Shown: positions 16,265-32,761, counted from the stretch's first letter. The stretch is DNA of 64,000 nucleotides from Deferribacterales bacterium (GCA_050253075.1 JBFWJS010000004.1:128001-192000), one strand, 5' to 3'. The notes: a model not told the origin generated them from the letters alone. Translations and numbers: made by a program.

Positions 16265-16293
16265 TTTTTTATAATACTATCAATGATTTACAC

Positions 16294-16326
16294 AAAGACT
16301 AGTGTTTCGGCACTGGTCTTTTTTTT
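16294..16326 (+). terminator. Island-supplied terminator after tRNA-Phe
   Basis: AAAGACTAGTG-tttcgg-CACTGGTCTTT followed by a T run. Confidence 0.75.
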
Positions 16327-16438
16327 GTGGTACACTCGTGGTACATTTTTGATTGAGATCTTGTGGTTAGGATTGGTTAAAAGTAGTGTATTATGAAATG
16401 TTTAGCCTTTGTTAAAGCATGAGTAATATAACATAGAG

Positions 16439-16825: not shown

Positions 16826-16895
16826 ATTCTTGACCTCGCTATAAACTTTCCCAATTATGAATTAACTCAAAATAAATCGCCACTGAATTGGTCGG

Positions 16896-17231
16896 CTATC
16901 TGTCTAATTCTAGTTCCAATTCAATAATTCTTTCCTCTAGCTCATTAATTTTCTCTTCTAGCGTTGTTGCCTCATCGAAAGTGTTTTTGTTACTTATGTT
17001 TTGATAAACTTTGTTGAAATGGAAATTGGCTTCTAATGTATTTAAATGGTTTTGGAATGAATTTGATTCTATGCTGAAAATCAAGTATCCAATAACTACA
17101 TATAATCCATACTCGAAATAAATTATCATTAATATAGCAATAATTAGCTTAATTGCAGTAAATGAAATAATGCTAAAATATTTGCTATCCTTTTTTGATT
17201 GGATATTAATGTCATAATCAAGCATAAACAC
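16896..17231 (-). CDS. Hypothetical membrane protein with C-terminal coiled coil
   Basis: AGGAG RBS, two hydrophobic segments, LEEKINELEERIIELELE tail. Confidence 0.6.
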   Translation of the reverse strand: MFMLDYDINIQSKKDSKYFSIISFTAIKLIIAILMIIYFEYGLYVVIGYLIFSIESNSFQNHLNTLEANFHFNKVYQNISNKNTFDEATTLEEKINELEERIIELELELDR

Positions 17232-17324
17232 GCTCCTACGAATTTATTACTTAAATCATAACTCATATTTTACATAATTGTGTATTTGATTGTACTTATG
17301 CTATTATCAATGTGAGGTATTGAT

Positions 17325-17996
17325 ATGGAATTAACAAAAATCATGATGTTGGTATGTTTCGCACTCGTTTTGGTTTCATGTGGCAGTAGGTATGGACTAG
17401 ATGTTACAGGATATGGCGATATTAGTAATGAAATAAAAACTTATGATGTTGCATTAACACCACAGCTGAAAAAAGACCTCGAATATATGGAATATGTGAA
17501 GTTGCTTGATAATAAAATGAGATGTCTGGGGTGGACTAAAACAACTGACAATCCTATATACCTTGTGCATCTTCAAGCTGGAATTGATGGAGGACGTAAT
17601 TCTACCTCTGCTGTACCAATATTTGGGCAAACAGGTGGTGGCTCAAGTTATACTACTGGTTCTTTTAATACAACAAGCACATATGGAACGTACACAGCGC
17701 GAACAACTTACTCTCCAAGTTTCGGAATGGTAGGAGTATTACCTGTAAATGTAACAACCTATACTCGATATGTTACGATATCCTTATATGATCCGACTAA
17801 TAGTACAGAAACTCCTGTATGGATGGGAAAAACCATTAGTAGAGGGTCAACGGGAGTCCTAAACAAAGTAATGCCTGTGTTGATGGAGTATACAGTTAAA
17901 GAAATTGGTAAAAGTACTAATGGAACAAAAAGTTTTACTGTAACATTATCTGAAAAAGACGTTGAGCAGCTACGAACAACCTGTAGTGTCAGGTAA
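17325..17996 (+). CDS. Lipoprotein (DUF4136-like)
   Basis: Lipobox LVSC, G/T/Y-rich middle, PVWMGK motif; the family call is an inference. Confidence 0.65.
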   Translation: MELTKIMMLVCFALVLVSCGSRYGLDVTGYGDISNEIKTYDVALTPQLKKDLEYMEYVKLLDNKMRCLGWTKTTDNPIYLVHLQAGIDGGRNSTSAVPIFGQTGGGSSYTTGSFNTTSTYGTYTARTTYSPSFGMVGVLPVNVTTYTRYVTISLYDPTNSTETPVWMGKTISRGSTGVLNKVMPVLMEYTVKEIGKSTNGTKSFTVTLSEKDVEQLRTTCSVR

Positions 17997-17999
17997 TTC

Positions 18000-18026
18000 T
18001 ACTCAGCCCATTTTTCGTTCTAAATT
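18000..18026 (+). repeat. 27-bp recombinase-type site, copy 1 (TACTCAGCCC ATTTTTC GTTCTAAATT)
   Basis: Shares arms and 7-bp spacer with four other copies in the island. Confidence 0.75.
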
Positions 18027-18124
18027 GAATCTCGCCCAATTCTGTCCAAAACTTATAAAAATTCAGTAACTGCATCCTGTAATAATGAACAATAAATATG
18101 TATTTGCTCGTTAGTGGTGCTTAC

Positions 18125-18178
18125 GTGAAAATCATTAAGAACTTAAAAGACGACAATGTAGAAATATATCAGCGAGGA
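18125..18178 (+). pseudogene. 5' remnant of an integrase paralog
   Basis: VKIIKNLKDDNVEIYQRG aligns with VKIIKSLQDGDVALYQRG at 21554; similarity ends at the palindrome. Confidence 0.65.
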
Positions 18179-18188
18179 ATATTCCTCG
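18173..18188. repeat. CGAGGAATATTCCTCG palindrome, copy 1
   Basis: Perfect 16-bp palindrome; further copies at 19130, 21422 and 27154. Confidence 0.85.
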
Positions 18189-18338
18189 TTGAACAGATTA
18201 TTATTATGTTCAAACTGTTCATAGATTGTTACAATATCACACTGAAAATCACTTATGATGTTACGGCTATCTGTATCATGATAGTCATATTATATTTCGT
18301 TGGTAAAAGCACAAAAGAGATGAAGGTAAAGTTGAGCT

Positions 18339-19118
18339 ATGACATCTGAAAAATTTGGTTATTCTGAAAAATCATCTAAAGAGATAATGCATATTTTCTG
18401 GAAAAATTTGCAAAAAGATCCTAAGAACAGAAAATTTCTGTTTTTCTACATTATGATAAGTGAGAAACAGTGCTTCACAAGTAATGAAAGTTTCATGCAC
18501 ATTTTAGAAATGATACCTGCTCTAACCCCAGAGCAAGAAATAAAAGACTTATATATTGAATTGCTTGCAGTTATAAAAAAAATAATGCCAGATACAGGGC
18601 TAACAAACAAAGAGGAACTGGTTAATAATTGTCTCGAAAATCCTGAACTTATAACAAGTATGACAGAAGTAGCAAAAGAAGATAGAGACTATTACGATGC
18701 ATTAAAAGAAGTTATCAGGATTTATATCGAAGATGTTGACCTTGACGTATCACAGATACCTTTCAAAACACAAGTAGCATTCTTAGACTGTTTTTCCGAA
18801 ACTCAAAAAGCACCTATAAGCAAAAAGAAAAATTTGATCCGAACGGATTACAGAAAAGCTTTTTCCGTATGGGCATTAAACGCATTTTTTGGGATAAACC
18901 CAACAAGAAATGACAAAACAGATCGGAATACTAATCCATGTGGATGTGATTTTGTCGCAGATGCTGAAAATTGTAAGTACGGTGAAATAAAAGAGCTTTG
19001 GTTCGATCATAAATTTAAGTTTTACCGTATGTCTGAGATCGAAGATATTTCATACATAATTAAAGATAAAGAAAATAACAAAACTTTATTTTCTCTGGGT
19101 TCAGGGCTAAGTAAGTAG
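18339..19118 (+). CDS. Hypothetical protein (paralog of 19252..20052)
   Basis: Shares SEKQ.F, RDYYDA, FSVWALN.FF and KFYR.SEIED motifs with the next ORF. Confidence 0.75.
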   Translation: MTSEKFGYSEKSSKEIMHIFWKNLQKDPKNRKFLFFYIMISEKQCFTSNESFMHILEMIPALTPEQEIKDLYIELLAVIKKIMPDTGLTNKEELVNNCLENPELITSMTEVAKEDRDYYDALKEVIRIYIEDVDLDVSQIPFKTQVAFLDCFSETQKAPISKKKNLIRTDYRKAFSVWALNAFFGINPTRNDKTDRNTNPCGCDFVADAENCKYGEIKELWFDHKFKFYRMSEIEDISYIIKDKENNKTLFSLGSGLSK

Positions 19119-19129
19119 CTTTATATCAT

Positions 19130-19144
19130 CGAGGAATATTCCTC
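19130..19144. repeat. Palindrome copy 2 (CGAGGAATATTCCTC)
   Basis: 14-bp perfect core. Confidence 0.75.
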
Positions 19145-19251
19145 TCTGCCCAAGACACAAGTTACTTATGAACGCCTTGCTGACTCATAAGAGAAGACAT
19201 ATGAAGCAGTGTTGAATTGACTAATAGATAATTTCTGAGAGGCAAGCCAAT

Positions 19252-20052
19252 ATGTTTACAGATAATAACGAGTACAAAAATGAAATAGAACTTTTGTGTG
19301 AAGAAGAAGCAAAAGAACGGATGAAGTCCTTTTGGTCAGCATTAATAGCTAATCCAGATTATAAAAAATTTCTTTATTATTATATTTTGACAAGTGAAAA
19401 GCAATATTTCAAAAATGACGAGGCTTACAGGCAAATTGAAGAAGAGTTAGAAACCATAACCAAAAATCAAAACGAAGAAGATGTCTATCATGAATTTCTT
19501 GAAGTCATAAAGAAATTGTTGCCCGACACAGAACCAACAAACAAAGATCAGATTATTAAAAAATGTGTCAGCAATCCAGATTTTATAAGACATGTTGCAA
19601 TAAATTCAAAAACAGACAGAGACTACTACGATGCTTTCATGGAAGTCATGAAAATGCTTTTTGAAGATAAGATAAGCATATTAGAGCTACCACCAGAAGC
19701 ATATACTGTATGGTTAAGTTTTACTTGTGGTGCATTAAATCCTACTCAGGCTAAGAAGAAAGTTCTAATCACTGAAGAGCATAGAAAAGTATTTTCCGTA
19801 TGGGCACTAAATGAGTTTTTTAAAGTAAAGCCAAGCACAACTGTTAATGGGGACAAAAACGGTGTTGTTAAGACTTGTGGATTCGACTTAGTAGCCAATG
19901 CTGAATATACTAGTTATGAAGCAATGAAAACACTCTGGAGTAATTATAGGCGTAAAAATACTTACAAATTTTATCGCTTATCTGAAATTGAAGATTTGCC
20001 AGTGATAATAACTGATGAAAACAAAAAGCTACTATTCGAAATAAACGACTGA
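19252..20052 (+). CDS. Hypothetical protein (paralog of 18339..19118)
   Basis: Collinear motif similarity to the upstream ORF. Confidence 0.75.
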   Translation: MFTDNNEYKNEIELLCEEEAKERMKSFWSALIANPDYKKFLYYYILTSEKQYFKNDEAYRQIEEELETITKNQNEEDVYHEFLEVIKKLLPDTEPTNKDQIIKKCVSNPDFIRHVAINSKTDRDYYDAFMEVMKMLFEDKISILELPPEAYTVWLSFTCGALNPTQAKKKVLITEEHRKVFSVWALNEFFKVKPSTTVNGDKNGVVKTCGFDLVANAEYTSYEAMKTLWSNYRRKNTYKFYRLSEIEDLPVIITDENKKLLFEIND

Positions 20053-20202
20053 TCATACATGATATTTAACCTCATCATCCTGAATTAATAATCTCCGTGT
20101 GGCACAACCACATCAAATCTTCCCCACTTATTTTTACCACTCATCACAGATATAGTTTTCTTAACAAATGGCTCGCAAGAGTCAAAAAAAGGAGACACTA
20201 TT

Positions 20203-20784
20203 ATGTGTAAATTAAACAATGTATCAAAAATGTCCGAAGAACAAAAAACTATGTCAGCAGAGCTTAATGACTATCTGTATCGAATTCATGAAGCTATCAG
20301 CGAAGCCAGAAAATCATCTTATAACATTTTCGCTGTATTTCTTGAGGCGCATGAGAATCTTAGCAACATTGAGTTCAATGATTTCTTAGACAAGGTTGAG
20401 TATGAAAAGAGCAGTATCAACAAGATGATGAAAATCTGTAAAAACAAGACTCTAGTCAAGCACATCGGCTTAGGGGGGCTTCCTGAAAGTTGGGGCACAC
20501 TTCATCAAATCGCATTTCTGAAAGAAAGTGATATTGATAACTTCATTAGTGACGGTTCACTAAACAAGAACTCGACCTTTAATGACGTTACGAAGTTACG
20601 TGATTCTACCAAGACTAACTCTGCTAGTACTGGCAGTAAACGTTACGTTCTTCAATTTAAAGAATCTGTCGAAATAGACAACATTGCAAAAAATGAAATA
20701 AAGCAAGCCATAAAAATATTTGAGAAGTACTTTTCTACTGATGGCAAATTATTCAACAAAATATTTGGAAATAGTGAAGGTTAA
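20203..20784 (+). CDS. Phage/MGE-type protein (DUF3102-like, tentative)
   Basis: AGGAG RBS; LPESWGTLHQI motif resembles proteins of mobile elements; family call is uncertain. Confidence 0.55.
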   Translation: MCKLNNVSKMSEEQKTMSAELNDYLYRIHEAISEARKSSYNIFAVFLEAHENLSNIEFNDFLDKVEYEKSSINKMMKICKNKTLVKHIGLGGLPESWGTLHQIAFLKESDIDNFISDGSLNKNSTFNDVTKLRDSTKTNSASTGSKRYVLQFKESVEIDNIAKNEIKQAIKIFEKYFSTDGKLFNKIFGNSEG

Positions 20785-20786
20785 TC

Positions 20787-21407
20787 ATGAATAACATGAA
20801 AACATTCGATGATTTCATATTTCATTCAGTACTAAGGAATGAACTAAAATATCTGCTAAATAACCCAGAGAGGATTCCAAGTCCTCTCTGCTTCTACGGC
20901 AGACCAGGCAACGGCAAGACATCTTTTGCTAATTATATAGCAGAAACATTTTGCTCTGAAGGATTTTACTATGACATGAATGAATACAAAAAGAGTGGTG
21001 CAAGTAGTGGGAAACTGCTGGAAACCATTAACCGTTATGCGTCTATGGCAACAATAAATGATGAAAGCAAACCTCTAGGTAAATGTATAATACTCGATGA
21101 ATGGCACAACGCCACATACTCGCAACAAGATGCATATAAAGTGCCTTTTGAAACGTACTCGCAAAAAGCAAACGTACTATTCATACTATGCTTAAACACA
21201 GACTGGAGCCTGCCCATTGAAAAGGCTCTTAGTCCTGCTATTAAGTCTAGGTGTCACTGTGTTTCATTTGATACAAGAAGTTCACAGTTGCCAGAACTTA
21301 AAGCACTAGTTAGTGAGCGATACCCTAATTTGAGTGAGACACAAATAGCTACTGCTTTACCAGACATGCGGGTAATACAGAGACTTGCTGATATGTACTC
21401 AGCTTAA
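20787..21407 (+). CDS. AAA+ ATPase, clamp-loader (RFC small subunit / T4 gp44)-like
   Basis: Walker A GRPGNGKT, Walker B IILDE, AIKSRC arginine-finger motif, DMR sensor-2. Confidence 0.75.
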   Translation: MNNMKTFDDFIFHSVLRNELKYLLNNPERIPSPLCFYGRPGNGKTSFANYIAETFCSEGFYYDMNEYKKSGASSGKLLETINRYASMATINDESKPLGKCIILDEWHNATYSQQDAYKVPFETYSQKANVLFILCLNTDWSLPIEKALSPAIKSRCHCVSFDTRSSQLPELKALVSERYPNLSETQIATALPDMRVIQRLADMYSA

Positions 21408-21421
21408 GTTCATCAATAATG

Positions 21422-21447
21422 ATCAGCGAGGAATATTCCTCGCTGAT
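21422..21447. repeat. Palindrome copy 3 (ATCAGCGAGGAATATTCCTCGCTGAT)
   Basis: 26-bp perfect palindrome about 107 bp upstream of the integrase gene. Confidence 0.85.
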
Positions 21448-21553
21448 TTATTTTCTGAATGCCTGACCGTTTTTATGCAACTCCCCAGCATAACCATTAA
21501 CTAAAGATGTATTTCTTAAACTAGGAATATTATAATCACTACGAGGTGTTTAA

Positions 21554-22759
21554 GTGAAGATTATCAAGAGTTTACAAGACGGTGACGTAGCTCTTTACCA
21601 GAGAGGTAAATACTACCACTGCCGACTGAAAGTGAATAACGAATATATTAAAAAATCATGCAAAACAAAGCATTTAAATGAGGCTGAGAAGTTCGCCTTA
21701 GACAAGTACCTTGAGATCAGGTACAGAGCGGAACATAACCTTCCGATTGAGTCTAAAAAATTCCAGAATGTTGCACATATAGCAATCAGGAACTTACAGA
21801 ACCAACTGGATTCAGGGGATGGCAAGGAGGTCTATTCTCACTACATTGGTTGCTTGAGGCGATATTTCATTCCTTTTTTCAAAAACAAGAACATCGACCT
21901 GATCGGGTACAAAGAAATGAAAGAGTTTGACGAATTCAGAAGAAAGAAGATGGGTAGAGTCCCATCTGCATCTACAATCAAGACTCACACTTCTGCCCTG
22001 AACTATGTCTTTGACATTGCAATTCAGCATCAGTGGATATTGAAGTCACAAATTCCACACCCCAAAAATCAAGGGCGTAAAGCGAGCAGAAGACCGCATT
22101 TTACTAGAGAAGAGTACAGGAAACTCGTTAGGAACATGACTGAATGGTCTAAAACAGGTCACAGAAAAACAACTCGTGATATCAGAGTGCTACTGAGAGA
22201 CTATGTACTGATTCTGGCACATACTGGCATGAGGTGTGGTAGGGAAAGTCTAAACCTTAAATGGAATCAAATCGAGTTCTTTAAGCATAATGGTGATGAA
22301 TATCTCAAGTTCTATGTTGATGGAAAAACAGGTAAGAGAGAACTGATTGCTCACAATAATATAAGAACCTATCTGGAGCGGATTAAGGACAGATTTGAGG
22401 ATTTGAAAGACTTATCTCTGAAAGAATGTACCAATTCAAATGAGTATGTTTTCAGAACTCCTGACGGTAGGAGACCGGGAAATCTGCTTAGAAGTTTTGA
22501 ACAGCTTCTGGTTTATTGTGACCTGTTACATGACAAGTACGGAGACAGAAGAACCCTTTACTCTATTCGCCACACATACGCTACAAAACAACTGAGCAAA
22601 GGAGTTAATATTCACCTACTCGCAAAACAGATGGGGACATCGGTAAAAATGATTGAGGAACACTACTCGCATCTGGTTCCGTCCATGTCTGCGGATATGT
22701 TATCTGGCAGGAATCATTTCAAAGAAGAAATAAATAGTATAAAAGTGGTGGTTAAATGA
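21554..22759 (+). CDS. Tyrosine site-specific integrase
   Basis: HTGMRCGRE (catalytic R), YSIRHTYAT, QMGTSVKMIEEHY; N-terminal arm-binding-like region. Confidence 0.92.
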   Translation: MKIIKSLQDGDVALYQRGKYYHCRLKVNNEYIKKSCKTKHLNEAEKFALDKYLEIRYRAEHNLPIESKKFQNVAHIAIRNLQNQLDSGDGKEVYSHYIGCLRRYFIPFFKNKNIDLIGYKEMKEFDEFRRKKMGRVPSASTIKTHTSALNYVFDIAIQHQWILKSQIPHPKNQGRKASRRPHFTREEYRKLVRNMTEWSKTGHRKTTRDIRVLLRDYVLILAHTGMRCGRESLNLKWNQIEFFKHNGDEYLKFYVDGKTGKRELIAHNNIRTYLERIKDRFEDLKDLSLKECTNSNEYVFRTPDGRRPGNLLRSFEQLLVYCDLLHDKYGDRRTLYSIRHTYATKQLSKGVNIHLLAKQMGTSVKMIEEHYSHLVPSMSADMLSGRNHFKEEINSIKVVVK

Positions 22760-22941
22760 GTTTCATAGAAATGCTAAAAAAATCTGATAAGAATTGCTTT
22801 GAGTACGACGGGGCTTATATCCTGATTTCAGAGACTAAGGCAGAAATTGTTCATGTCCGAGAAGGTCAGGTTAAGTCCTCGTACTTCAAGCTAAAAATCC
22901 CCAAGAGATTAAAGAGATCTGAGATCATCTATCTCGGATAA
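22756..22941 (+). CDS. Small hypothetical protein
   Basis: 61-aa ORF overlapping the integrase 3' end. Confidence 0.4.
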   Translation: MSFIEMLKKSDKNCFEYDGAYILISETKAEIVHVREGQVKSSYFKLKIPKRLKRSEIIYLG

Positions 22942-23016
22942 TTGGCAGAACAATTATGAATTACCGTCGTTGTGAGCTCAAAAAGGTCATCAACTTGAAG
23001 CCTACCAGATTATAAT

Positions 23017-24129
23017 TTAATTTTCTGTTACCTCACAATATTCAATCGAACTATTTATAATGCGTACTTTTTTTATGTCTCCATTTGGTTTTGCTGAATC
23101 AACGCCGAAAAGAACATAATTATCACCTGTAGCTTTATTACTCTTGTATTTAACCCCATGAACAAAAGGTTTTCTACGGTCATCAGATCGTAATGATTTA
23201 AGATATTCACACAAATATTGTGTTGGTAGATATTCAAATTCACTGTTTTCTTCTAATACCGGCTTATTTAACTCCTGTGCAACATAATTCAAAAGGTCAC
23301 GGTAACGTAATTTATCTTTAAATCCATCAACAAACGGAGACTCAATAACCATTTCTTTTCCCAAATCAAGAATTCTCAATTTTTTAACAGCATTAAACTT
23401 TACATAACAGACTTCTGTCTTTACAGGTGGTCGAACCTCATTTATTGCTGTATCAACGTCTGAAGCTAAATACAAGTACGGTATCCCTTTTGGGTTAGCT
23501 CTTCCAGAATTAGCCTTACCAAATGGAGGAGCTTTCAAATCTTTAAATTTGTATTTAGCACCTCCATCATGAATCCGTGCTCTATAAAAGATTTTAGATG
23601 CGTCTACAATTTCATAATTTTTGAATGTAGCGATTCCTGTTTTAATTAAACTTTCAAAATCTTCAAAATCTCTGCCTCTTAATAAAAATCTATTCTTGAA
23701 AATTATGCTTTGAGATATTTTTTGAAAACAAATCTTTCCGTATTCACTATATAAAGAGGAACGATTAGGGAAAATACGACCTATACTATTTGCTGATAAC
23801 TGCAATATAGAATCTTTCTCATCTTTAAAAAGATCGCTTAGTATCAATTCGCATCTCGATTGAGCGATAAACATGTCCCAATCTTTCTGTATTCCTTGAA
23901 AAAGATTAATTTCCCATTTTGATAAAAATGCTGCTCCAAAAATGGAATCGTTGTTATTGATAACTTTATAGAAATTGATTAATTCTAGGAATCTTTCTTT
24001 TAAGGCTAAAATATCTATGACATGATCTCTTATGGCATTACAGTAAGAGCATTTCCCACTGTGCCCTGACTTCAATATATCATTTTTAATAATTTTATCG
24101 TTAAAACACTCTGTACAACAATAACTCAT
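23017..24129 (-). CDS. RES-domain protein with Cys-rich N-terminal domain (putative NAD+ phosphorylase toxin)
   Basis: CCTECF.D and CSYC; FYRAR, GRANPKGIPYLYLAS..DTAINEVRP, YLPTQYLCEY, GVKYKS motifs. Confidence 0.85.
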   Translation of the reverse strand: MSYCCTECFNDKIIKNDILKSGHSGKCSYCNAIRDHVIDILALKERFLELINFYKVINNNDSIFGAAFLSKWEINLFQGIQKDWDMFIAQSRCELILSDLFKDEKDSILQLSANSIGRIFPNRSSLYSEYGKICFQKISQSIIFKNRFLLRGRDFEDFESLIKTGIATFKNYEIVDASKIFYRARIHDGGAKYKFKDLKAPPFGKANSGRANPKGIPYLYLASDVDTAINEVRPPVKTEVCYVKFNAVKKLRILDLGKEMVIESPFVDGFKDKLRYRDLLNYVAQELNKPVLEENSEFEYLPTQYLCEYLKSLRSDDRRKPFVHGVKYKSNKATGDNYVLFGVDSAKPNGDIKKVRIINSSIEYCEVTEN

Positions 24130-24212
24130 GTCTTGCCTCACAATTTTTACGTTAATAAAAACACAACTAAATTGCAATTCAATTACGATATGTTTAGAGT
24201 GTACTTCTAAGT

Positions 24213-24845
24213 CTAAAATAAATCCATTGTGCTGTTCGACTGATCTATAGAGTTGAACAATTCCTCGTTATGATATTTCAGATAAATCAGCGTGTTATTG
24301 ATTGATTTATGTCCCAAGAATTTCTGTAAGAGAACTATGTTCATACCTGTTGAGAGAAGGTGAATTGCTCTGGAATGGCGGAACATATGAGAATGTCCGA
24401 AACTCTCTTTAGACTCTCCCAGAGTCCTCCTGATTAGTTTTCTCAGCCTGTACCAGATAGCAGGGTTGGAGATTTGCTTCTTTCCAGATTTCTTTGAAAA
24501 GATGTAGTCCGAATTATTCATATAGTTTTCAGTCTTATGAAGCATGAGTAATTTGGTGAGTTCGGACGAGAGTTTCAGGATACGAAAAGAGGGTTTTCTT
24601 TGCTTAAGTGTCATGACCTTAACCTTGTTCTCATAGAACATAACATCATCAAATTTCACGTTCATCCCTTCTGTTATTCTACATCCAGTCTCGAACATGA
24701 ACAGGAACACCATTTTCCAGAATTTTGAATCCTCTGCCGAAATCAGGGTCATTATATCGGACACATGAAGGTACTTGATTTCGTCTGATTTTTCAGATTT
24801 GACCACTTGAACTAATGTAGTATCACAGATTTGTATTTCTTGCAT
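24213..24845 (-). CDS. Small tyrosine recombinase (catalytic domain only)
   Basis: [20 protein letters not shown] and [12 protein letters not shown] motifs. Confidence 0.9.
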
Positions 24846-24989
24846 AAATAGCTCCTAGATTTAGACTTTTACCACTTGGTTATTATATTAAATCTAGGAG
24901 AGAAATACAGAGAAGAAATAGCATAAAGCTATTAAATACCAATAGTTTAGTTATCAGCATTTAACATTATAGTTCATTCTATTAAATTC

Positions 24990-25016
24990 AATTCAGACCG
25001 TTTTTCGTTCTAAATT
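24990..25016 (+). repeat. 27-bp recombinase-type site, copy 2 (AATTCAGACC GTTTTTC GTTCTAAATT)
   Basis: 145 bp upstream of the small recombinase gene; overlaps the stop codon of 25015..26463. Confidence 0.8.
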
Positions 25017-26463
25017 AATAGGTCTTTTCAGAGAAGCCAATAATCATGTTCAGTTCTTGGTAGATGAATTGCCTCAGTTCATTTACATCAATTTTACCAT
25101 CAAAGATTACACAGTCATGTATCTGGTAAAAATCAGCGATTCCTTTGCTTTCAATAAATTCAATCATCTTTAATCTAACCTGCCGTTCAACCAGTTCATA
25201 GATTCTGTAAATTCTCCTATCATCTAGAGATTTGCCCCTGCCTTTCCCTTTAAGTGTTTGATTATGTTCCTGTATCTCAGCATCAATCATGTCTTTGAAA
25301 TCCTTAACCCTGATATTGCCAATCTTGAAGAATTCATTTGAATCAGAATTTTGGTGATAGAACTTTTCAAGAACTCTTTCCCTTAGTTTATTTGTTTCTG
25401 CGATATACGGTTCAACTAGTTTCTTGCATTGAAGAATTGATTTTGGCGAAAAAAGATTATTCCTCTGTTTGCAGTATTTGTATATGATTCTGCTCTTTGG
25501 CGAGTAGCTAATAGAAGTAATGATCTCTTTTGCCAGCGGTTCACTGCATCTGAAAACATTGGTGTATTTCCATCTGAACATTGACTTATTGGTTATCAAT
25601 GAATAATGGGCTGGGAAATCTTCTTTAAGATAACTCAGAGAATTCCTCTTGCTCTGAATAATCGTGTTCATGTAATACAGGTTCACCAGAACAGATTGAA
25701 TGGCAGAGTTAATATCTATTTCCGTGTATCCCTTCAATATCACTGACCTGAAATTCTTTGAAAACATACCTATTGTCGTGTATTCCCTTCCGTGCCCCTC
25801 AAGGCTCGACTTTAAGACCTCGTTTTCAGCATATACATATTCACTATCACTACCGATGCAGTTATTCAGCAGTATAAGGAAATCATCACAAAGCCCTTTC
25901 TTAAACTCCTTGTACAGCTTCAAGAAGATGTCTTTTCTCACTTTGATAAAACTATCTGCTTTTTGATCTGCATCGGTTCTGAGAACTGTTCTAATCTTCT
26001 CTTTATGAGCATCTTCGTAATATTGGAACTTATCTAAGTACTTGATCTGTCTAACTGTCAGCCACATTGCAGTATCAACAGCTTTATTGATTAAATCAGA
26101 ATATGTATACCAATGTGGGTAGCCATTACGCTCTGAACCTTTGCTGTTGTTTCTGTGATATGTCGAGTTATCCCCCCTTCGGAAGAATACAAAATACTTA
26201 CTGAGCTTGTTCCTCTTTAATATTGCTAAGTCAGTACTGAAAATGTGGTATTCGTCAACATGTCCGCTACTGGGAAGGTGCTTATTCTGGTAAGAATAAC
26301 TGATTATCTTGGCTAATGTTTCAACCAACCCTTTCAGCGTTAAATGATGGTACTTCACATCCTTGTACTTTCTCAGGATTCTAATCTGGTTTAATATCTT
26401 TTTATTCAGAACTAATTCTAACTTCTCTTGAAATATCTGTTTCATATCTGGCATGTTATTCAA
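25015..26463 (-). CDS. Family-A polymerase-related protein (TV-Pol-like), putative primase/replicase
   Basis: GREY, motif A EIDINSA, motif B AKEIITSISY and motif C QIHDCV in the expected order; start codon uncertain. Confidence 0.65.
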   Translation of the reverse strand: MNNMPDMKQIFQEKLELVLNKKILNQIRILRKYKDVKYHHLTLKGLVETLAKIISYSYQNKHLPSSGHVDEYHIFSTDLAILKRNKLSKYFVFFRRGDNSTYHRNNSKGSERNGYPHWYTYSDLINKAVDTAMWLTVRQIKYLDKFQYYEDAHKEKIRTVLRTDADQKADSFIKVRKDIFLKLYKEFKKGLCDDFLILLNNCIGSDSEYVYAENEVLKSSLEGHGREYTTIGMFSKNFRSVILKGYTEIDINSAIQSVLVNLYYMNTIIQSKRNSLSYLKEDFPAHYSLITNKSMFRWKYTNVFRCSEPLAKEIITSISYSPKSRIIYKYCKQRNNLFSPKSILQCKKLVEPYIAETNKLRERVLEKFYHQNSDSNEFFKIGNIRVKDFKDMIDAEIQEHNQTLKGKGRGKSLDDRRIYRIYELVERQVRLKMIEFIESKGIADFYQIHDCVIFDGKIDVNELRQFIYQELNMIIGFSEKTY

Positions 26464-26714
26464 TTAAGTGATTTGACCGAGAAGCTCACGAGCGGAAACT
26501 AAGAGTTCTAATACAGTAATGTTTGATGAACCAAAACCAAACAAAAAAGCAACTTTTACTGCTAAGGAAAACTAATCCCTTCTTTGTGTTCCTTTAGTTC
26601 CCTTCTATTAGTTCTAACCTCTTATTTCTTTATTTCTCTTTAATCACCTTTCCTTTAATTTTCCTCTATTATGTTGAACAAGTAACAACCACTTAACCTA
26701 GTTAAATGGCTTTT

Positions 26715-26741
26715 AATTCAGAATATTTTTCGTTCTGAATT
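26715..26741 (+). repeat. 27-bp recombinase-type site, copy 3 (AATTCAGAAT ATTTTTC GTTCTGAATT)
   Basis: Near-perfect arms; overlaps the stop codon of 26740..26982. Confidence 0.8.
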
Positions 26742-26982
26742 AGTCCTGTCTTTCTCTTAGTTCTCTGATTAGATCGGCTGTACTGATTGGTTGTATTGCA
26801 GGTTTCATGACCTCTTGTTCCTGAACAATATTGCTTCTTGTACTCTCAGTACCATGCTTGTAATGATGCTCTTTTACCAGATCACAGATAAATGAACTCA
26901 TATTGTTTGACGATGTTTTCAGAATCTCGTAAACCTCTTCTGTAACTGATATTGTCATTGCCTTTTTCTTGTAGTTTTTCAT
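26740..26982 (-). CDS. Small ribbon-helix-helix (CopG-like) DNA-binding protein
   Basis: MTISVTEEVYEIL....NMSSFICDLV pattern; AGGAG RBS. Confidence 0.6.
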   Translation of the reverse strand: MKNYKKKAMTISVTEEVYEILKTSSNNMSSFICDLVKEHHYKHGTESTRSNIVQEQEVMKPAIQPISTADLIRELRERQD

Positions 26983-27153
26983 GATTTTATCTCCTTTAGA
27001 TAATATTATTTATATCTCTAAATAGGCATTTAAATACTCACAGCGACACAGATAATGGCTAAATAATAGTTTATTACCATATGTTTAACTAAAGAGAGTA
27101 TGAGTCATTTATGAATATTAAGGAATGAACAGGATAAATCCCGAAAGTTATAT

Positions 27154-27173
27154 AGCGAGGAATATTCCTCGCT
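27154..27173. repeat. Palindrome copy 4 (AGCGAGGAATATTCCTCGCT)
   Basis: 20-bp perfect palindrome in a divergent intergenic region. Confidence 0.85.
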
Positions 27174-27266
27174 TGTTAGATTTTTTCATATATGGACGTA
27201 CTTGGTTTTAGAGTAAATTGTCTTTGTATCTTTTTGGTGCTAAAATCACCATTAGTGAGGTCAAAC

Positions 27267-27620
27267 ATGAGAACAAACTCTAAAAGCTACATTCAAAATA
27301 ATTTCCCCGACTTACTTCAATATAAATGTACTACTAGTCGCATGTATGAGAGCAAAGATAAATCTAGCTATAATGATAACTGGTGGTTCAACTTCAATCT
27401 TAATGATTTAGGGAAGGACGATTACATAGTATTTGCAGGAGCTTTAGACTACAATAATCAGGATTTTCGCATTTACAAAGTACCAGTTGATTTCATTAAG
27501 AATAATCTCCAACATCTTTATAACAAAGAAGGATTTGTAATTTTGTATATCACTATGGAATCATCTATCGACATCAGGACAAAAAACAAAATTTCTTTCA
27601 ATGCTTTTAGATTAAATTAA
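27267..27620 (+). CDS. Hypothetical protein
   Basis: ATG after GAGG; 117 aa with an NWWFNF motif. Confidence 0.55.
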   Translation: MRTNSKSYIQNNFPDLLQYKCTTSRMYESKDKSSYNDNWWFNFNLNDLGKDDYIVFAGALDYNNQDFRIYKVPVDFIKNNLQHLYNKEGFVILYITMESSIDIRTKNKISFNAFRLN

Positions 27621-27645
27621 GCATAAACTTGGCAAGATAAAGTTC

Positions 27646-27677
27646 AAAAAAGGAGCCTCCCTATCGGGAGACTCCTT
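27646..27677 (-). terminator. Terminator-like hairpin after the lipoprotein gene
   Basis: AAGGAGCCTCCC-tatc-GGGAGACTCCTT preceded by an A run. Confidence 0.55.
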
Positions 27678-27715
27678 GAGACCTATATTATTCCCTTTGT
27701 TTGTAGATTTAGCTG

Positions 27716-28969
27716 TTATAAGGAACTGGCATAGCCAATGAGTTCATTGTAATCCAGAGTTCCGTAGTTATCTGAGAAATTGAACCAACCAGAAAGACCA
27801 AATGGTGCTGATTCTGTATTCTGCTCTGATACAGAGTCAATTCGGGTGAGAATATTCCTTGTTGTTGCTTCAAGCTCAAAATCATCGACAGTACAGCCGT
27901 CAAAATCAGCAGACGATTTATTCACGATGTTCTGAATCTCGTACATGTTCTGAGTTCCGGCAATGTCATTCAGAATGTCTTCATCAGCATAGATGTAACC
28001 CTCTGAACTCTGACATGTATAATCGGAATCATCACCGAGCCTTGATTCAAAAGTGGTGAATGTATAGACCTCAGTGTTCGAGTCAGGATTCTGTCTCACT
28101 CTTTCACTATAAGATATTGGTCTGATTTCGGTTTCCAGATCATCTTCTACTTTAGTGAGTTCGTAGATTGTTCTCTCGTTAGTGAACACGATTACGTCTT
28201 TATACCAAGCATCTGGATAAGCATTTTTGTTGTCGATTTCACTGCCCTGATAGTATTGAACCATTACAAAGTTAGTGTCACCGTACTGTGCTTTGAGAGC
28301 AAGTGTGTCCTCAAGAGACTTGGCAAGGACAGGTACAATGTCTCCTGCAAGGTCATGAGCGACAGCATTCTGTTCTTCTACATAGTCAGAATAGAGTTCT
28401 TCTTCTGTAAGCCCAAGTGTCTGAGACACGTTCTGAACTGTTTCATCCATGAGCAAAAGAATGTCCTGAACTGCTGATGGGTTTGATGAGAAATAGTCAC
28501 ATGTTACATCTGCACCATATTCCTGAAATATCATGCTCTGAATCTTAGTCCAGAGAACAGAAGTTAAAGGTGTGATGTGAGCTGTTGTTTTCTCAGTTGT
28601 GCCGCCAAAATTTGGTGTTCTGAACATCTGATATGCTTCTGTTACTGTGCCATTCTCTAGGTCAACTGCACCGACAGGAACATCAACCACGAGTGGCGAG
28701 TTCCAAGCACATGCTTTCTGTGTTTCATCTTCAAAAGTCAGGTTAAAGAGTCCGCCTTCTCCAGATACTACAGATGGTTCACCATCATCAAGCTCACCGT
28801 TGTAGTTCAGGTCATAAAAGATTGTTGCTCCTTCAATGTAACCATCAATGACCTTACCTGCCATATCAGCAGTGGTTAAGTCTGAATCTGATGAACTGGA
28901 AGACGAACCGCCACCTCCACATGCAGTCAAGGAAAGAAGCACTAATAACATCAAGCAGTATCTTTTCAT
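27716..28969 (-). CDS. Acidic surface lipoprotein
   Basis: Lipobox LTAC, G/S linker, GKVIDGYIEGATIFYDLNYNGELDDGEP motif. Confidence 0.75.
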   Translation of the reverse strand: MKRYCLMLLVLLSLTACGGGGSSSSSSDSDLTTADMAGKVIDGYIEGATIFYDLNYNGELDDGEPSVVSGEGGLFNLTFEDETQKACAWNSPLVVDVPVGAVDLENGTVTEAYQMFRTPNFGGTTEKTTAHITPLTSVLWTKIQSMIFQEYGADVTCDYFSSNPSAVQDILLLMDETVQNVSQTLGLTEEELYSDYVEEQNAVAHDLAGDIVPVLAKSLEDTLALKAQYGDTNFVMVQYYQGSEIDNKNAYPDAWYKDVIVFTNERTIYELTKVEDDLETEIRPISYSERVRQNPDSNTEVYTFTTFESRLGDDSDYTCQSSEGYIYADEDILNDIAGTQNMYEIQNIVNKSSADFDGCTVDDFELEATTRNILTRIDSVSEQNTESAPFGLSGWFNFSDNYGTLDYNELIGYASSL

Positions 28970-29092
28970 TGTAAAACCTCCATAAATGATTGTAAAAATT
29001 AGATTTTATAAGGTTATTCACTTATAAATCTTCGACAATAGAACCGCATATATGCGGTGTATAAACTTTAAACTTTAATGCAGAATTTGTAA

Positions 29093-29311
29093 ATGGATAA
29101 TATCAATTTAAGATTTGCAAAAACGCTTAGAATGTTACGAACTGAAAGGAACATGACTCAGGAAGAACTGGCAGAAAAGTCAGGTATTGACTATAAGTAT
29201 CTTCAGAAATTAGAAGGGCAAAATCCTTCATCACCAACATTATCGACCCTTGAAAAACTTGCCAAAGGGTTGAGTATAACAATAATACAGCTTTTAGCAG
29301 ATATTCAGTAA
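29093..29311 (+). CDS. XRE-family HTH regulator
   Basis: LRTERNMTQEELAEKSGIDYKYLQKLE...PTLSTLEKLAKGL. Confidence 0.9.
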   Translation: MDNINLRFAKTLRMLRTERNMTQEELAEKSGIDYKYLQKLEGQNPSSPTLSTLEKLAKGLSITIIQLLADIQ

Positions 29312-29501
29312 TACACGCAGCATTTCAGCCGTGTTATTGAACGATATTTCTGTTGCTCTTAATGTGTCAATTTCAGAGCTAATGCAACACGACCACAAAG
29401 ACGATAGCGAACTTCTAAAGAAAGAGGTCATAAAGTATATCAACAATGCCAGCCCAGAAACCATTCAGAAGATATACTTCTTTATTAAGAATATATTATA
29501 G
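29310..29501 (+). pseudogene. C-terminal remnant of a second XRE regulator
   Basis: Hand translation NTRSISAVLLNDISVALNVSISELMQHD...KIYFFIKNIL*; the HTH N-terminus is missing. Confidence 0.55.
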
Positions 29502-29516
29502 ATGACTATATGATAC

Positions 29517-29543
29517 AATTTAGACCATTTTTCCTTCTGAATT
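29517..29543 (+). repeat. 27-bp recombinase-type site, copy 4 (AATTTAGACC ATTTTTC CTTCTGAATT)
   Basis: Same arms and spacer; lies between convergent gene ends. Confidence 0.8.
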
Positions 29544-29599
29544 AACAGGATTATTGCCTGAATTGACTTTCAAAGATCATAAATGTTAAACTAAATTCA

Positions 29600-30322
29600 C
29601 TAAATGATATTTTTAAAAACAACAATAAAAGCACAAAGAATAAGCATCAAGTTAACTATTACAGAGAAAGTCCTGTCGCTAATTTTCCTGAGGAATTTAC
29701 GACCAAAATAATTACCCGTAACCGCCCCAACTCCTGCTATAACCCCAATAAGCAAGACTTTGGAATCTATCATGCCAACTGTAGTGTATGTGCCTGCTTT
29801 GAATAATTGCATAACAATAACAACAGCAGCTTTTGTGCCTAGTAGCATTTCTTTTTGCATGCCATAGTTCATGTAAAACGGATTCATTAAAGGACCGCCC
29901 ACACCAACAATCCCTGATATAAAAGAAGAGATTGTTCCGGCTATTGGAAAGTGCCAGTTTTTAACTTGAAACAGCTTTTTCTCTTTGAAAAATAGTGCCC
30001 ATACGCCATTTAACAAATAGAATCCTGCCAAAAAATATGCAATTACCACAGGGTTAACAAAAGAGAATAGGTAAGCTCCAGACACCGCTCCGATTATGAC
30101 ACCCGGCATAACAAGCAATGAGACTCTAACATTAATTGATTTTCTGTATAAGACTATTCTGCTTAAACCAGACAACAAACCTGCAACAGCGACAGCAGGT
30201 GCTACTGTCTGTATCGAAAAGAACATTCCTGAAACAGGGACAAAAATCATTGCCCCTCCGCCACCAGCCAGAGTACTGAAAAACCAAGATAAAGCACCTA
30301 AAACAAAAGGTAATAAAAGCAT
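29600..30322 (-). CDS. TauE/SafE family membrane exporter
   Basis: AGGGGAMIFVP and SGIVGVGGP repeats; multiple transmembrane segments. Confidence 0.85.
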   Translation of the reverse strand: MLLLPFVLGALSWFFSTLAGGGGAMIFVPVSGMFFSIQTVAPAVAVAGLLSGLSRIVLYRKSINVRVSLLVMPGVIIGAVSGAYLFSFVNPVVIAYFLAGFYLLNGVWALFFKEKKLFQVKNWHFPIAGTISSFISGIVGVGGPLMNPFYMNYGMQKEMLLGTKAAVVIVMQLFKAGTYTTVGMIDSKVLLIGVIAGVGAVTGNYFGRKFLRKISDRTFSVIVNLMLILCAFIVVFKNII

Positions 30323-30343
30323 AATCCCTCATGTAATAATGTA

Positions 30344-31255
30344 TTAAAATTCTATAACTATCTTTCCCATATCTTTTGTGTCGTAACCGCCAATATGGGC
30401 AAATTCATCTCTGAAAGCATCTGAACGTATTATGCTTAATAAAGATTCAATCTCAGGAGTCCCCATATCTTCTCTCTTGAATACTAAGTCATACCTTTCT
30501 TTTTTGATTGGAACAAATTCAATGCCTTCAACTTGTTTAGCGATTTTCTCAGAACCGATAGCGACATCAGCCTTTCCTGAAGCAACAACACTTGCGACAG
30601 TTAAATGAGACTGGATTTCTTTTTCGTATCCTGAAATATCCTTTCCGAAAATACCTAAAAGTCTGAGGTTCTCATCCAGCAGTACCCTAGAGCCTGAGCC
30701 TTGTTCACGGTTGACCATCGTTATGTCATCACGCCTAAAGTCTTCCCATTTTATTATATTTTTCGGGTTTCCTTTGGCGACATAAAAACCTTGGATGCGA
30801 CAGGTTAAGTGGACAATAACAGCAGGAATCCCAGGTAGCAGTCTACGCACATAAGGAACATTGTATGTGTCAGTGTCGCTGTCCCAGAGGTGGGCTGATG
30901 CAACACTTACCTGATTCCGATAAAGAGCGACAAGGCTATCATAGCTCCCAATGTATGCTCGCAATGCAGGTGTATTATGCTGACGCATATAGTTTGAGAG
31001 TATATCCAGTATTATATCCTGACCACATAACACAAACCCTTTATTTGCGATACCACTGATTGCTTCATTTTTAACGGGGATATTCGCTTGTTTGCGACCT
31101 TTAATATATGATTTGACATCATCTTCTGAAAAACGAATTTTCCGTCCAACTTTGTAAGATGGTAACTCACCGTTTTTTATTAAGCTATAAACCTTGCTCT
31201 TACTGATTTTTAGCATTTCGCTAATATCTTCTACAGAAAGCTCATCTCTTGACAT
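30344..31255 (-). CDS. Excisionase-type HTH + periplasmic-binding-fold (molybdate-binding-like) regulator
   Basis: LSVEDISEMLKISKSKVYSLIKNGELPSYKVG, GSYDSL, NREQGSGSR and ERYDLV motifs. Confidence 0.85.
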   Translation of the reverse strand: MSRDELSVEDISEMLKISKSKVYSLIKNGELPSYKVGRKIRFSEDDVKSYIKGRKQANIPVKNEAISGIANKGFVLCGQDIILDILSNYMRQHNTPALRAYIGSYDSLVALYRNQVSVASAHLWDSDTDTYNVPYVRRLLPGIPAVIVHLTCRIQGFYVAKGNPKNIIKWEDFRRDDITMVNREQGSGSRVLLDENLRLLGIFGKDISGYEKEIQSHLTVASVVASGKADVAIGSEKIAKQVEGIEFVPIKKERYDLVFKREDMGTPEIESLLSIIRSDAFRDEFAHIGGYDTKDMGKIVIEF

Positions 31256-31422
31256 CATAAAGCCTCCAAATCTTGACAAATACGCCAATTAATTTAAAAT
31301 AAGACATAAAGCATAATTTATACATGTTTTAGTGTTATTTAATCTATTTAAGCACAGCTCAAGACGAGAAACAAGAACATTTAAGTTGAAAATTATTTCT
31401 TAATAAAACAAGGAGTGATTCT

Positions 31423-32454
31423 ATGAATAAAAAAATTGCAATTAATGGATTTGGAAGGATAGGTAGAGTTTTATTTAAACAGATTATTAACGATGACAGA
31501 TATGAAGTAAAAATAATAAACGATCCCGCAACAACAGAGATGATGGTTTACTTATTAAAACATGATAGTACTCTTGGCACAATGGATATGCAAAACGAAT
31601 TGAAAACGGGCTGTGATTTCATAGATGTACATGGACAACATATACATACAACACATGAAATTGAGCCAGATAACCTATTATGGGGTAAATACGATATAGA
31701 TATTGTAATCGACTGCTCAGGCACTTACCTTTCTAAAGAGAAAGCACAGAAGCATCTTGATGCCGGAGCAAAGAAAGTCATATTGTCTGCCCCTGCTGGT
31801 CATGATATACCAACTGTCGTATACGGAGTTAATACAGAAATATTGACATCAGATGACCGTATCATTTCTGCGGCATCTTGTTCTACCAATGCACTTGCGC
31901 CTATGGTGAAAGCCTTGAGTCAGTATGCCAATATTTTAGCTGGGAACATGCTTACAGTTCACGGATATACTGCAAGCCAAGTTCTTGTGGATAATGCACA
32001 AAAAAACAATGACTTTAGACGATCAAGAGCCGCAGCATGCAATATTATACCAACCTCAGCAGAAGCAGCTACCGCAGTAGGGAGGGTTATTCCTTCTTTA
32101 GATGGCAAATTGCACGGTTCAGCTGTCAGAGTTCCAGTTCAAGCAGGATGTTACATAAATTTTATTGCTGAAATAGAAAGAAAAAATGTCTCAGCAAAAG
32201 AACTTAATAATGTAATGAAATCAGCCTCCTCAGATTTCTTTGGATATACAGAGGAAGAATTAGTTTCTTCTGACATAATAGGTATTCGTTATGCATCACT
32301 TTTTGATGCCACACAAACAGAAGTCTGTAGAACATCTCAAAATACTTTTCAGATAAAACTGTCAGCATGGTTTGACAACGAAAGCTCTTTTGTATCACAA
32401 ATTATTCGCTGTTTAAGCATTGATGCTTTAAGGATTGACAAGACAAGACATTAA
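31423..32454 (+). CDS. gap: Type I glyceraldehyde-3-phosphate dehydrogenase (divergent accessory copy)
   Basis: INGFGRIGR, ASCSTNALAP, RVPV and WFDNE motifs. Confidence 0.85.
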   Translation: MNKKIAINGFGRIGRVLFKQIINDDRYEVKIINDPATTEMMVYLLKHDSTLGTMDMQNELKTGCDFIDVHGQHIHTTHEIEPDNLLWGKYDIDIVIDCSGTYLSKEKAQKHLDAGAKKVILSAPAGHDIPTVVYGVNTEILTSDDRIISAASCSTNALAPMVKALSQYANILAGNMLTVHGYTASQVLVDNAQKNNDFRRSRAAACNIIPTSAEAATAVGRVIPSLDGKLHGSAVRVPVQAGCYINFIAEIERKNVSAKELNNVMKSASSDFFGYTEEELVSSDIIGIRYASLFDATQTEVCRTSQNTFQIKLSAWFDNESSFVSQIIRCLSIDALRIDKTRH

Positions 32455-32485
32455 CCAGCTAATTGTTTATATTTTTCCTGAAACT

Positions 32486-32512
32486 AATATGGAACATTTT
32501 TCGTTCTAAATT
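32486..32512 (+). repeat. 27-bp recombinase-type site, copy 5 (AATATGGAAC ATTTTTC GTTCTAAATT)
   Basis: 31 bp after the gap stop codon and 165 bp before attR. Confidence 0.8.
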
Positions 32513-32676
32513 AAATGTACTTTTAGACACAATAAACTGAAGTGGTACAAAAAGCCCATTGCTGTCGCCATAAACTACTGATAATGCTAGAGAAATTCTC
32601 AAATACATTTTTTGGTACAATTTTTAGATTAACTTAAAGTTCAATATTATTAACAATTTAACTAATGTGTAACTTT

Positions 32677-32724
32677 CTGAAAATCCCCGTGTCGATGGTT
32701 CGATTCCGTCCCTGGGCACCATTT
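32677..32724 (+). repeat. attR: duplicated 3' half of tRNA-Phe
   Basis: Identical to 16220-16267. Confidence 0.95.
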
Positions 32725-32732
32725 AAAATAAT

Positions 32733-32761
32733 AAAGGCTTCCCTTTTGGGAGGCCTTTTTT
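32733..32761 (+). terminator. Probable original tRNA-Phe terminator
   Basis: AAAGGCTTCCC-tttt-GGGAGGCCTTT followed by a T run. Confidence 0.75.

Follow-up and report, generated by a model that had tools for sequence, protein, structure and literature searches.

The stretch of DNA considered here, a 64,000-nucleotide window (GCA_050253075.1, JBFWJS010000004.1:128001-192000) from a Deferribacterales bacterium, contains next to a tRNA-Phe gene an island in which five directly oriented copies of a 27-bp site separate short blocks of genes (Table 1). Two genes for tyrosine recombinases lie among these blocks, int401 for an integrase of 401 amino acids (aa) and rec210 for a recombinase of 210 aa. 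Since the 3' end of the tRNA gene is duplicated as a 57-bp repeat, which does not appear in the preliminary description of this DNA, positions 16265-32733 constitute a classical tRNA-Phe island. We believe that the 27-bp repeats are probably att-type sites of a family of integrase-bearing elements and that the island around them is probably a composite, assembled and reshuffled through site-specific accretion. In the following the host genome is called G000 and its other contigs C3 and C6, whereas G001 and so on stand for other genomes and L numbers for individual loci.

The 27-bp sites and the island that holds them

The core motif of the sites, TTTTTCNTTCTRAATT, matches the window five times, always on the + strand (at 18011, 25001, 26726, 29528 and 32497), as compared to an expected count of 0.00 in 100 dinucleotide-preserving shuffles of the window. 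Each site is composed of two imperfect 10-bp inverted arms with a conserved asymmetric 7-bp spacer between them, which reads ATTTTTC in four of the sites and GTTTTTC in the remaining one. When the sites are aligned together with 60-nt flanks, conservation does not extend beyond the 27 bp and is strongest in the spacer and the right arm, the left arm being more variable. All five sites share one orientation, though the flanking genes occupy both strands, and all are located at gene 3' ends: site 1 starts 4 bp past the stop codon of the DUF4136 gene, sites 2 and 3 overlap the stop codons of the 482-aa and the 80-aa gene, respectively, and sites 4 and 5 follow the stop codons of the TauE and the GAPDH gene at distances of 56 and 31 bp. 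The start of rec210 is found 145 bp downstream of site 2, and site 5 sits 164 bp inside the right border of the island. In these respects, namely the number, position and orientation of the sites, their arms and spacer, their placement at gene ends and the proximity of one of them to rec210, the preliminary description has proved accurate.

RNA hairpins calculated for sites 1 to 5 have energies of 0, -2.9, -10.5, -3.6 and -6.0 kcal/mol, respectively. Site 1 does not fold, the fold of site 3 has a z-score of -6.8, changes in the arms are not compensatory, what would be the loop is the most conserved part, and none of the sites is followed by a run of T residues. What the sites conserve is sequence and not hairpin stability. 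Together with the single orientation, the unfolded site 1, the non-compensatory arm changes, the conserved loop and the lack of a T-run fit a protein-bound duplex site with an asymmetric overlap and not a terminator, a repetitive extragenic palindromic (REP) element or an attC-like hairpin.

A position weight matrix (PWM) scan of the whole 3.04-Mb assembly yields seven sites, which score 43-51, as against 17.3 for the next best match. Two of the seven lie beyond the window, at C3:91746 and C3:95319, and all are confined to two tRNA-adjacent low-GC blocks. The motif is therefore absent from the backbone, yet not unique to the island, so that the previous statement that no copies occur outside the island is valid for the rest of the window but not for the genome. 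A profile built from 13 sites and searched over the window plus 14 loci gave 15 hits at E <= 3.6e-5, with the next hit at E = 2; these comprise the 13 training sites, a site with an 8-nt spacer in G005 and a variant in G001. Degenerate extra copies picked by eye (~16433, 21459, G001 L026 ~15715, G008 L027 10424 and the junctions of a TauE copy on C3 described below) are insignificant in this search (E >= 2) and were rejected as sites. With one mismatch allowed, the core motif is present in four of the 16 genomes of the family (G000, G001, G008 and G009), where a reversed-pattern control gave one hit. At the level of the order 12 of 63 genomes match; outside the family, however, these are all single one-mismatch hits about as frequent as those of the reversed-pattern control, and we therefore regard such matches in the order and the phylum as chance. 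Viral contigs contain no match to the site pattern. The best candidate for the chromosomal dif site, which was searched for with a dif consensus, is located at C6:29899-29926 and reads ACGTCCGATAA-GATATA-TTATGTTAAAT in an 11-6-11 layout; with its arm TTATGTTAAAT and its 6-bp spacer it is unlike the 27-bp site.

The two sites on C3 are 3.6 kb apart, the first beginning 69 bp after a tRNA-Leu(taa) gene. In the low-GC block between them lie genes for a BbrUII/HgiDII-type restriction enzyme and a Dcm methylase but none for a recombinase. The same contig carries, in a low-GC variable region, a third copy of the TauE/regulator/GAPDH genes (C3:8059-11013, L029), which lacks good flanking sites. This copy is 95.5% identical to that of G001, whereas the copy in the G000 island and that of G001 share 84.6%. 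Backbone sequence resumes 9 bp from its end, and the hexamer AATATG is common to its right junction and the unusual left arm of site 5. A clean empty site for this copy could not be defined, the syntenic locus of G001 being itself variable.

As for the island as a whole, GC content is ~0.47-0.50 outside and 0.31-0.42 between ~16 and 40 kb, and an Rfam search over 15500-34000 found the tRNA alone, the rest being sub-threshold noise. The 9-mer ACCATTTTT is common to the junction of the tRNA-Phe 3' end with a T-run (16257-16270, CACC-ATTTTTT) and to the left-arm end and spacer of most sites, which could be chance or else a hint that one integrase reads both sequences. The segment that follows the tRNA gene ends at 16384-16397 in G001, G008 and G009 and does not follow tRNA-Phe in G002 and G003. 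The slot occupied by the variable block 16385..17999 holds other cargo in G008 and G009; in G009 (L028, 10255-11946) a gene for a 563-aa reverse transcriptase fills the slot between the post-tRNA segment and a site, and two copies of a 33-bp repeat of sequence from downstream of tRNA-Phe (12318-12350 and 9934-9966) flank the region.

The blocks hold one to five genes on both strands with signals of their own, and none of the three successive blocks after site 2 has a recombinase. In module A the 259-aa and 266-aa genes are paralogous (67.6% DNA identity over 287 nt, 18431-18715 and 19365-19649) and belong to no known family, the 266-aa protein giving a weak AbiJ-like hit (E = 0.002). The GC-rich palindrome AGCGAGGAATATTCCTCGCT, scored as terminator-like, occurs four times (18162-18202, 19122-19144, 21415-21453 and 27154-27173), and two of the copies bracket the paralogue/ATPase block. 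The 482-aa gene of module C had been labelled a polymerase gene, a label that we do not retain: its product matches nothing in Pfam, NCBIfam or PADLOC, and weak structure-level leads point to phage primase/D5-like proteins. PADLOC gave weak hits only for the unassigned island genes. Beyond the island, from 32734 to ~40000, lie genes for an EamA transporter, a methyltransferase, a GT2 glycosyltransferase, a response regulator and a 740-aa protein in further low-GC, variable DNA. After tRNA-Phe, the backbone of the site-less genome G003 picks up again only at the equivalent of ~39996 of the window, and a second variable region thus follows the island.

Table 1. Features of the tRNA-Phe island, in window coordinates
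Feature	Position	Strand	Sequence, support or remarks
tRNA-Phe(gaa), integration target of the island	16189..16264	+	ARAGORN; Rfam tRNA, 70.7 bits
Left 57-bp direct repeat, attL of whole island	16220..16276	+	last 45 nt of tRNA-Phe plus 12 nt downstream
Post-tRNA segment, part of island	16265..16384	+	shared with G001, G008 and G009; contains GTGGTACA-like repeats
Variable block, three small genes (128 aa, 111 aa, DUF4136 lipoprotein)	16385..17999	.	between post-tRNA segment and site 1
Site 1	18000..18026	+	TACTCAGCCC-ATTTTTC-GTTCTAAATT; profile E 1.3e-7
Leader (flank), ~100 bp after site 1	18027..18124	+	78-86% identical in G001, G008, G005 and G000 C3
Duplicated first 18 int401 codons	18125..18178	+	VKIIKNLKDDNVEIYQRG, versus VKIIKSLQDGDVALYQRG in int401
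Module A cargo: paralogues of 259 and 266 aa, 193-aa gene, 206-aa AAA/clamp-loader-like ATPase	18339..21407	+	
Possible half-site (tentative)	21459..21475	+	ATGCCTGACC-GTTTTTA; ahead of second partial leader copy; insignificant in profile search
int401, 401-aa tyrosine integrase	21554..22759	+	Pfam Phage_integrase, 29.8 bits
RES-domain protein, 386 aa	23017..24177	-	Pfam RES; indel relative to related strains
rec210, 210-aa tyrosine recombinase, catalytic domain only, Xer-like	24213..24845	-	
Inverted repeat at rec210 5' end	24852..24900	-	CTCCTAGATTTAATAT ... AAATCTAGGAG; alignment with L002 and L056
Site 2	24990..25016	+	AATTCAGACC-GTTTTTC-GTTCTAAATT; profile E 5e-9
Module C: 482-aa gene	25015..26463	-	family unassigned
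Site 3	26715..26741	+	AATTCAGAAT-ATTTTTC-GTTCTGAATT; pattern, PWM and profile search
Module D: 80-aa antitoxin-like gene, 142-aa gene, 417-aa gene, XRE regulator	26740..29311	.	
Site 4	29517..29543	+	AATTTAGACC-ATTTTTC-CTTCTGAATT; pattern, PWM and profile search
Module E: TauE exporter, PBP_like/HTH_17 regulator, GAPDH	29600..32454	.	library domain matches
Site 5	32486..32512	+	AATATGGAAC-ATTTTTC-GTTCTAAATT; pattern, PWM and profile search
Right 57-bp repeat, attR of whole island	32677..32733	+	94.7% identical to 16220-16276

Block order in relatives and metagenomes

G001 belongs to the same genus as the host of the window, with backbone DNA that is ~76-87% identical, and contains five sites, one of them inverted. 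At its tRNA-Phe gene the post-tRNA segment is followed by ~90 bp resembling the right end of block D, a site, the TauE block, another site, the leader and the integrase-bearing core. The TauE/regulator/GAPDH block is 84.6% identical between the two genomes and the core genes are 91-95% identical at the DNA level, the core of G001 being broken by IS21-type insertion sequences (IS) and its integrase truncated. Because the TauE block of G001 is joined to the core through a single site, as predicted for a circle formed between site 5 and site 1, the orders in the two genomes are circularly permuted. Homology in the core starts at 18003 and that in the TauE block stops at 32519. Block D is located at tRNA-Leu in G001, where it begins at a site; one inverted site lies 11 bp from an internal breakpoint of this block, a decayed site-like sequence takes the place of site 4, and the 18 bp that are shared to the left of site 3 adjoin an IS5-type insertion.

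Four metagenome runs were examined as Logan contigs, from which rare variants are dropped: X1, the likely source sample, and X3, X5 and X8, which come from three independent studies and represent related strains, with 90-99% identity to the window in most of their contigs. In X5 and X8 there are contigs in which 16384 is followed immediately by 18001, at the left edge of site 1, so that 16385..17999 is skipped. One contig of X8 ends at exactly 25016, the right edge of site 2, and the block of the 482-aa gene is practically uncovered in X3, X5 and X8 (depth 0 in the bins of 25644-26277 and 0 to 0.33 in the bin 25010-25643) before contigs of all three restart at 26660. A 21-nt site-like end follows 27622 in contigs of X5 and X8, and a contig of X3 covers 29511-32724.

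Many of these breakpoints lie 0-20 bp from a site, although the sites themselves make up ~1% of the island. By informal count among related genomes, breakpoints lie within 20 bp of a site far more often than would be expected from the ~2% of the island that such windows occupy. Blocks are reordered, relocated, replaced or absent in G001 and in the metagenome contigs, which supports the proposal that the sites bound modules; many synteny breakpoints do fall at sites, and several others do not.

Candidate enzymes and competing explanations

The sites are physically tied to the int401 gene by a conserved unit of site, leader and integrase start, which is found in four genomes, G000 (at site 1), G001, G005 and G008. 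Both G000 and G001 carry, immediately behind the leader, a duplicate of the first 18 integrase codons; in G000 this remnant is separated by the paralogue/ATPase block from the full int401, which has a partial leader of its own. At the second C3 site of G000, site and leader extend up to the ribosome-binding site of the integrase, in G004 the end of the leader is followed by an integrase remnant, and G009 retains a site with 31 bp of leader. The att cores of integrative elements usually adjoin the integrase gene. Homologues of int401 occur in G001 (97% identical but truncated) and in G010 (52%), with remnants in G002 and G004, and viral contigs contain relatives at 25-36% identity only.

The catalytic set of rec210 is intact (R56, H153, R156, H179 and Y188/Y191 are conserved). 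Its matches to XerA, XerD and XerC are confined to their catalytic halves, and all scores fall below the family cutoffs (95 bits versus 220 for XerA and 78 versus 330 for XerD; 38 and 35 bits versus ~222 for FimE/FimB-type invertase models); it is of the same fold class as the Xer recombinases and FimB/FimE-type invertases but not a member. It is rare, with 13 clusters in a set of 5.8 billion protein clusters, and within the family a close homologue is encoded in two of the 16 genomes, G000 and G010 (61%). Four genomes with sites, G001, G005, G008 and G009, have none: their best listed matches are 28-29% identical in G001, G008 and G009, which is the level of generic recombinases, and no stronger by E-value in G005. 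Homologues with 58% (L002) and 71-72% identity (L056 and L059) reside in islands that are bounded by tRNA-Leu-end repeats and that also carry an int401 homologue beside the tRNA (45-53% identical; 51% in L002), the pair of rec210 and int401 being kept in three element lineages. The 27-bp site is absent near the rec210 homologues in L002-L012 and in L056/L059, and 79 metagenome loci with such homologues (734,237 bases) gave no hit above a PWM score of 14.5, where true sites score 35.8-43.4. De novo repeat searches in L002-L004 and L056 returned tRNA-end repeats, a CRISPR array and chance pairs only; the CRISPR-like array, with five 66-bp-spaced repeats, lies at 18455-18765 of L003, a Spirochaetota record, 8 kb from a 43% rec210 homologue. 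The inverted repeat at the 5' end of rec210 overlaps its ribosome-binding site, is kept upstream of the 58-72% homologues (L002 ~9950-10000; L056 9945-9991) and may be an operator or rec210's own site.

Co-occurrence cannot separate the two enzymes, because int401 as well is truncated or a remnant where sites lack rec210. Judged from gene arrangement and conservation, int401 may well be the enzyme of the sites; it is possible that both enzymes act together or that another one does, and rec210 by itself appears a rather unlikely candidate. Since the earlier assignment of the sites to rec210 has to contend with four site-bearing genomes that lack a close homologue, with homologues of 58-72% identity that lack the site, and with the coupling of the site to the integrase gene instead, we no longer uphold it.

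According to the reading that we favour, the 27-bp repeats would be core-type crossover sites of a tyrosine recombinase, with ATTTTTC as the overlap, and would form part of a group of tRNA-linked integrative elements found in this bacterial family, with site, ~100-bp leader and 401-aa integrase gene as their conserved end. The island would then be a composite of an integrase-bearing core and integrase-less blocks, each bounded by sites in the manner of cis-mobilizable elements. Recombination of any two direct sites would release a circle of one or several blocks, which would be reinserted on recombining with a further copy of the site. Such accretion and cis-mobilisation would account for the differing order, location and content of blocks in relatives. 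No recombination product is seen directly in the contigs, so that activity of the sites, and with it strand exchange within the spacer, is an inference.

Several observations weigh against this reading. The left boundary of block D is placed 18 bp (in G001, beside an IS) or 55 bp (in X3, X5 and X8) to the left of site 3, and further breakpoints lie away from the sites: an indel at the RES gene that joins 22942 to 24213 with five other letters between them (X3, X5 and X8), a replaced XRE region (28918-29318), an insertion of 355 nt at 27695, and the IS insertions of G001. Neither excision circles nor deletion joints nor any other product of recombination appear in the contigs of X1, a null result that says nothing either way, because rare forms are dropped from the contigs. 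Sites are present in five of 16 family genomes, a small comparison set in which the site-bearing genomes are related. The int401 homologues of L002 and L056 lie beside tRNA-Leu with tRNA-end repeats but no 27-bp site; this, together with the 57-bp duplication of tRNA-Phe, suggests that int401 may be a tRNA-end integrase, in which case the 27-bp site may just be part of the conserved end of the element while int401 serves the tRNA-end repeat. Finally, simple decay of whole elements does not explain clean sites on both sides of integrase-less blocks.

But could the sites belong to rec210 after all, as the preliminary description had it, with site 2 as an attI-like site and the blocks as cassettes of an integron- or pdif-like platform? 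An Xer-like enzyme with an intact catalytic set and nothing but a catalytic domain would suit simple sites, three recombinase-less blocks stand in a row after site 2, the int401/rec210 pair has been kept in three lineages, and int401 perhaps serves the tRNA-end att exclusively, so that the 27-bp sites would fall to a second enzyme. Nevertheless, we consider this model doubtful, because the distribution of rec210 and that of the site disagree in both directions as described above, because the cis element that travels with rec210 is a different palindrome, at the 5' end of that gene, and because blocks with genes on both strands and signals of their own are unlike integron cassettes. A related possibility, to which we would give only a limited chance, is that the site-leader-integrase end acts as a capture platform for small recombinase-less modules, each with one simple duplex 27-bp site. 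Modules such as the restriction-modification pair, the TauE/GAPDH genes and the antitoxin-like/XRE genes would on this view be inserted, excised and exchanged between the two tRNA loci and even secondary sites. Such gene capture would be integron-like but based on simple sites in place of attC hairpins, and the CB-less 210-aa recombinase might operate it jointly with the integrase.

It is far less probable that the repeats are nothing but intergenic repeats of a donor genome, such as terminators, REP-like elements or operators, which were carried in and lie near breakpoints by coincidence or through short-homology events. The location of every site at a gene 3' end, the stable hairpin of site 3 and the breakpoints away from sites could be accommodated in this way. 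However, it would not readily explain that site 1 does not fold, that fold energies are not conserved while the loop or spacer is the most conserved part, that the sites keep one orientation despite genes on both strands and are not followed by a T-run, that the 3-Mb backbone has none and out-of-family matches are single and no commoner than those of the reversed-pattern control, or that breakpoints cluster 0-20 bp from sequences that occupy so little of the island. Just as improbable, if not more so, is the use of the sites by a chromosomal recombinase of the host (XerC/D or another conserved enzyme), as in IMEX and pdif systems, with neither island enzyme taking part. Generic Xer-like recombinases are encoded in all 16 family genomes, and fossil-looking arrays persist in genomes without an intact int401 or rec210, but the dif candidate differs from the site in its arm, the spacer has 7 bp and not 6, and all sites are direct whereas those of pdif modules alternate.

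Relation to known systems

In several respects the locus resembles an integron: a recombinase gene stands beside a primary site, an array of recombinase-less units follows, and its content varies between strains. However, rec210 and int401 score 49.2 and 19.1 bits with the NCBIfam integron integrase models, for which the cutoff is 265. Moreover, the 27-bp sites have folds of 0 to -10.5 kcal/mol with site 1 unfolded and thus form no attC hairpins, and the units comprise 1-5 genes on both strands with their own signals, whereas integron cassettes mostly are promoterless single genes in one orientation. As there is no IntI signature and no attC, and as units occupy both strands, the locus is not an integron. 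The pdif modules of Acinetobacter plasmids, which are served by XerC/D, are small modules that have short simple sites with inverted arms and move between replicons. Different from these, the present sites are unlike the candidate dif, have a 7-bp spacer and are all direct, and judged by the dif candidate the locus is not a dif-type module system.

A closer parallel is provided by islands formed by tandem accretion, in which, according to the part of PMC5704250 considered here, one unit keeps its integrase while decayed units that keep attL and attR become cis-mobilizable elements (CIMEs), and which give rise to composite excision patterns. As in the CIMEs and ICESt1-type elements of Streptococcus described in the same part of that paper, direct repeats of an att core are present at every junction, and a single unit carries the integrase while the other units have attL and attR but no recombination genes. 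Direct att-core repeats number five in the window, two on C3 and five, one of them inverted, in G001; an integrase gene adjoins an att site in the site-leader-int401 unit; and blocks C, D and E as well as the restriction-modification block on C3 have both sites but no recombination genes. The 57-bp repeat of the tRNA 3' end, with 94.7% identity between its copies, and the low GC content are those of a tRNA island. The complex excision patterns that PMC5704250 presents as a feature of CIMEs may have a counterpart here. The present blocks also differ from CIMEs in being small (1.7-7 kb), in some cases clean-edged and free of any trace of a decayed integrase, in the lack of conjugation genes, and in that the array is nested in a tRNA-end duplication with a second tRNA locus carrying the same site. 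Unlike in accretion islands, a copy of one block, the TauE block, is found at a place without sites.

Modular excision through internal repeats has been shown for PAISt of Streptomyces turgidiscabies, as the part of PMC4057263 considered here reports; there, large modules are delimited by an 8-bp palindrome, whereas here a 27-bp site is present in five or more copies and modularity is predicted from the DNA. The tandem ssrA-targeting islands of Dehalococcoides, as presented in the relevant part of PMC3146451, offer a further example of site-specific islands that pile up at one small-RNA gene. A search confined to the open-access literature (subscription-only journals were not covered) turned up neither this site nor islands of this kind in the phylum. 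The designation as an undescribed cassette system was nevertheless overstated, given that PMC5704250 and PMC4057263 describe composite islands in which att sites occur internally and modules lack recombinases.

If the sites are active, the locus would represent, in a little-studied phylum, a compact and tractable island whose interchangeable blocks are put together through one short site, and it would show how defence and metabolic modules move between tRNA hot spots without transposases. The recombinase lineages concerned are rare, and a new simple site with one or two recombinases is directly testable. If, on the other hand, the sites are inactive fossils, the locus would be an ordinary decayed composite island. 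Taken together, the locus fits the known ways in which islands are built by site-specific recombination better than it fits a wholly new cassette system.

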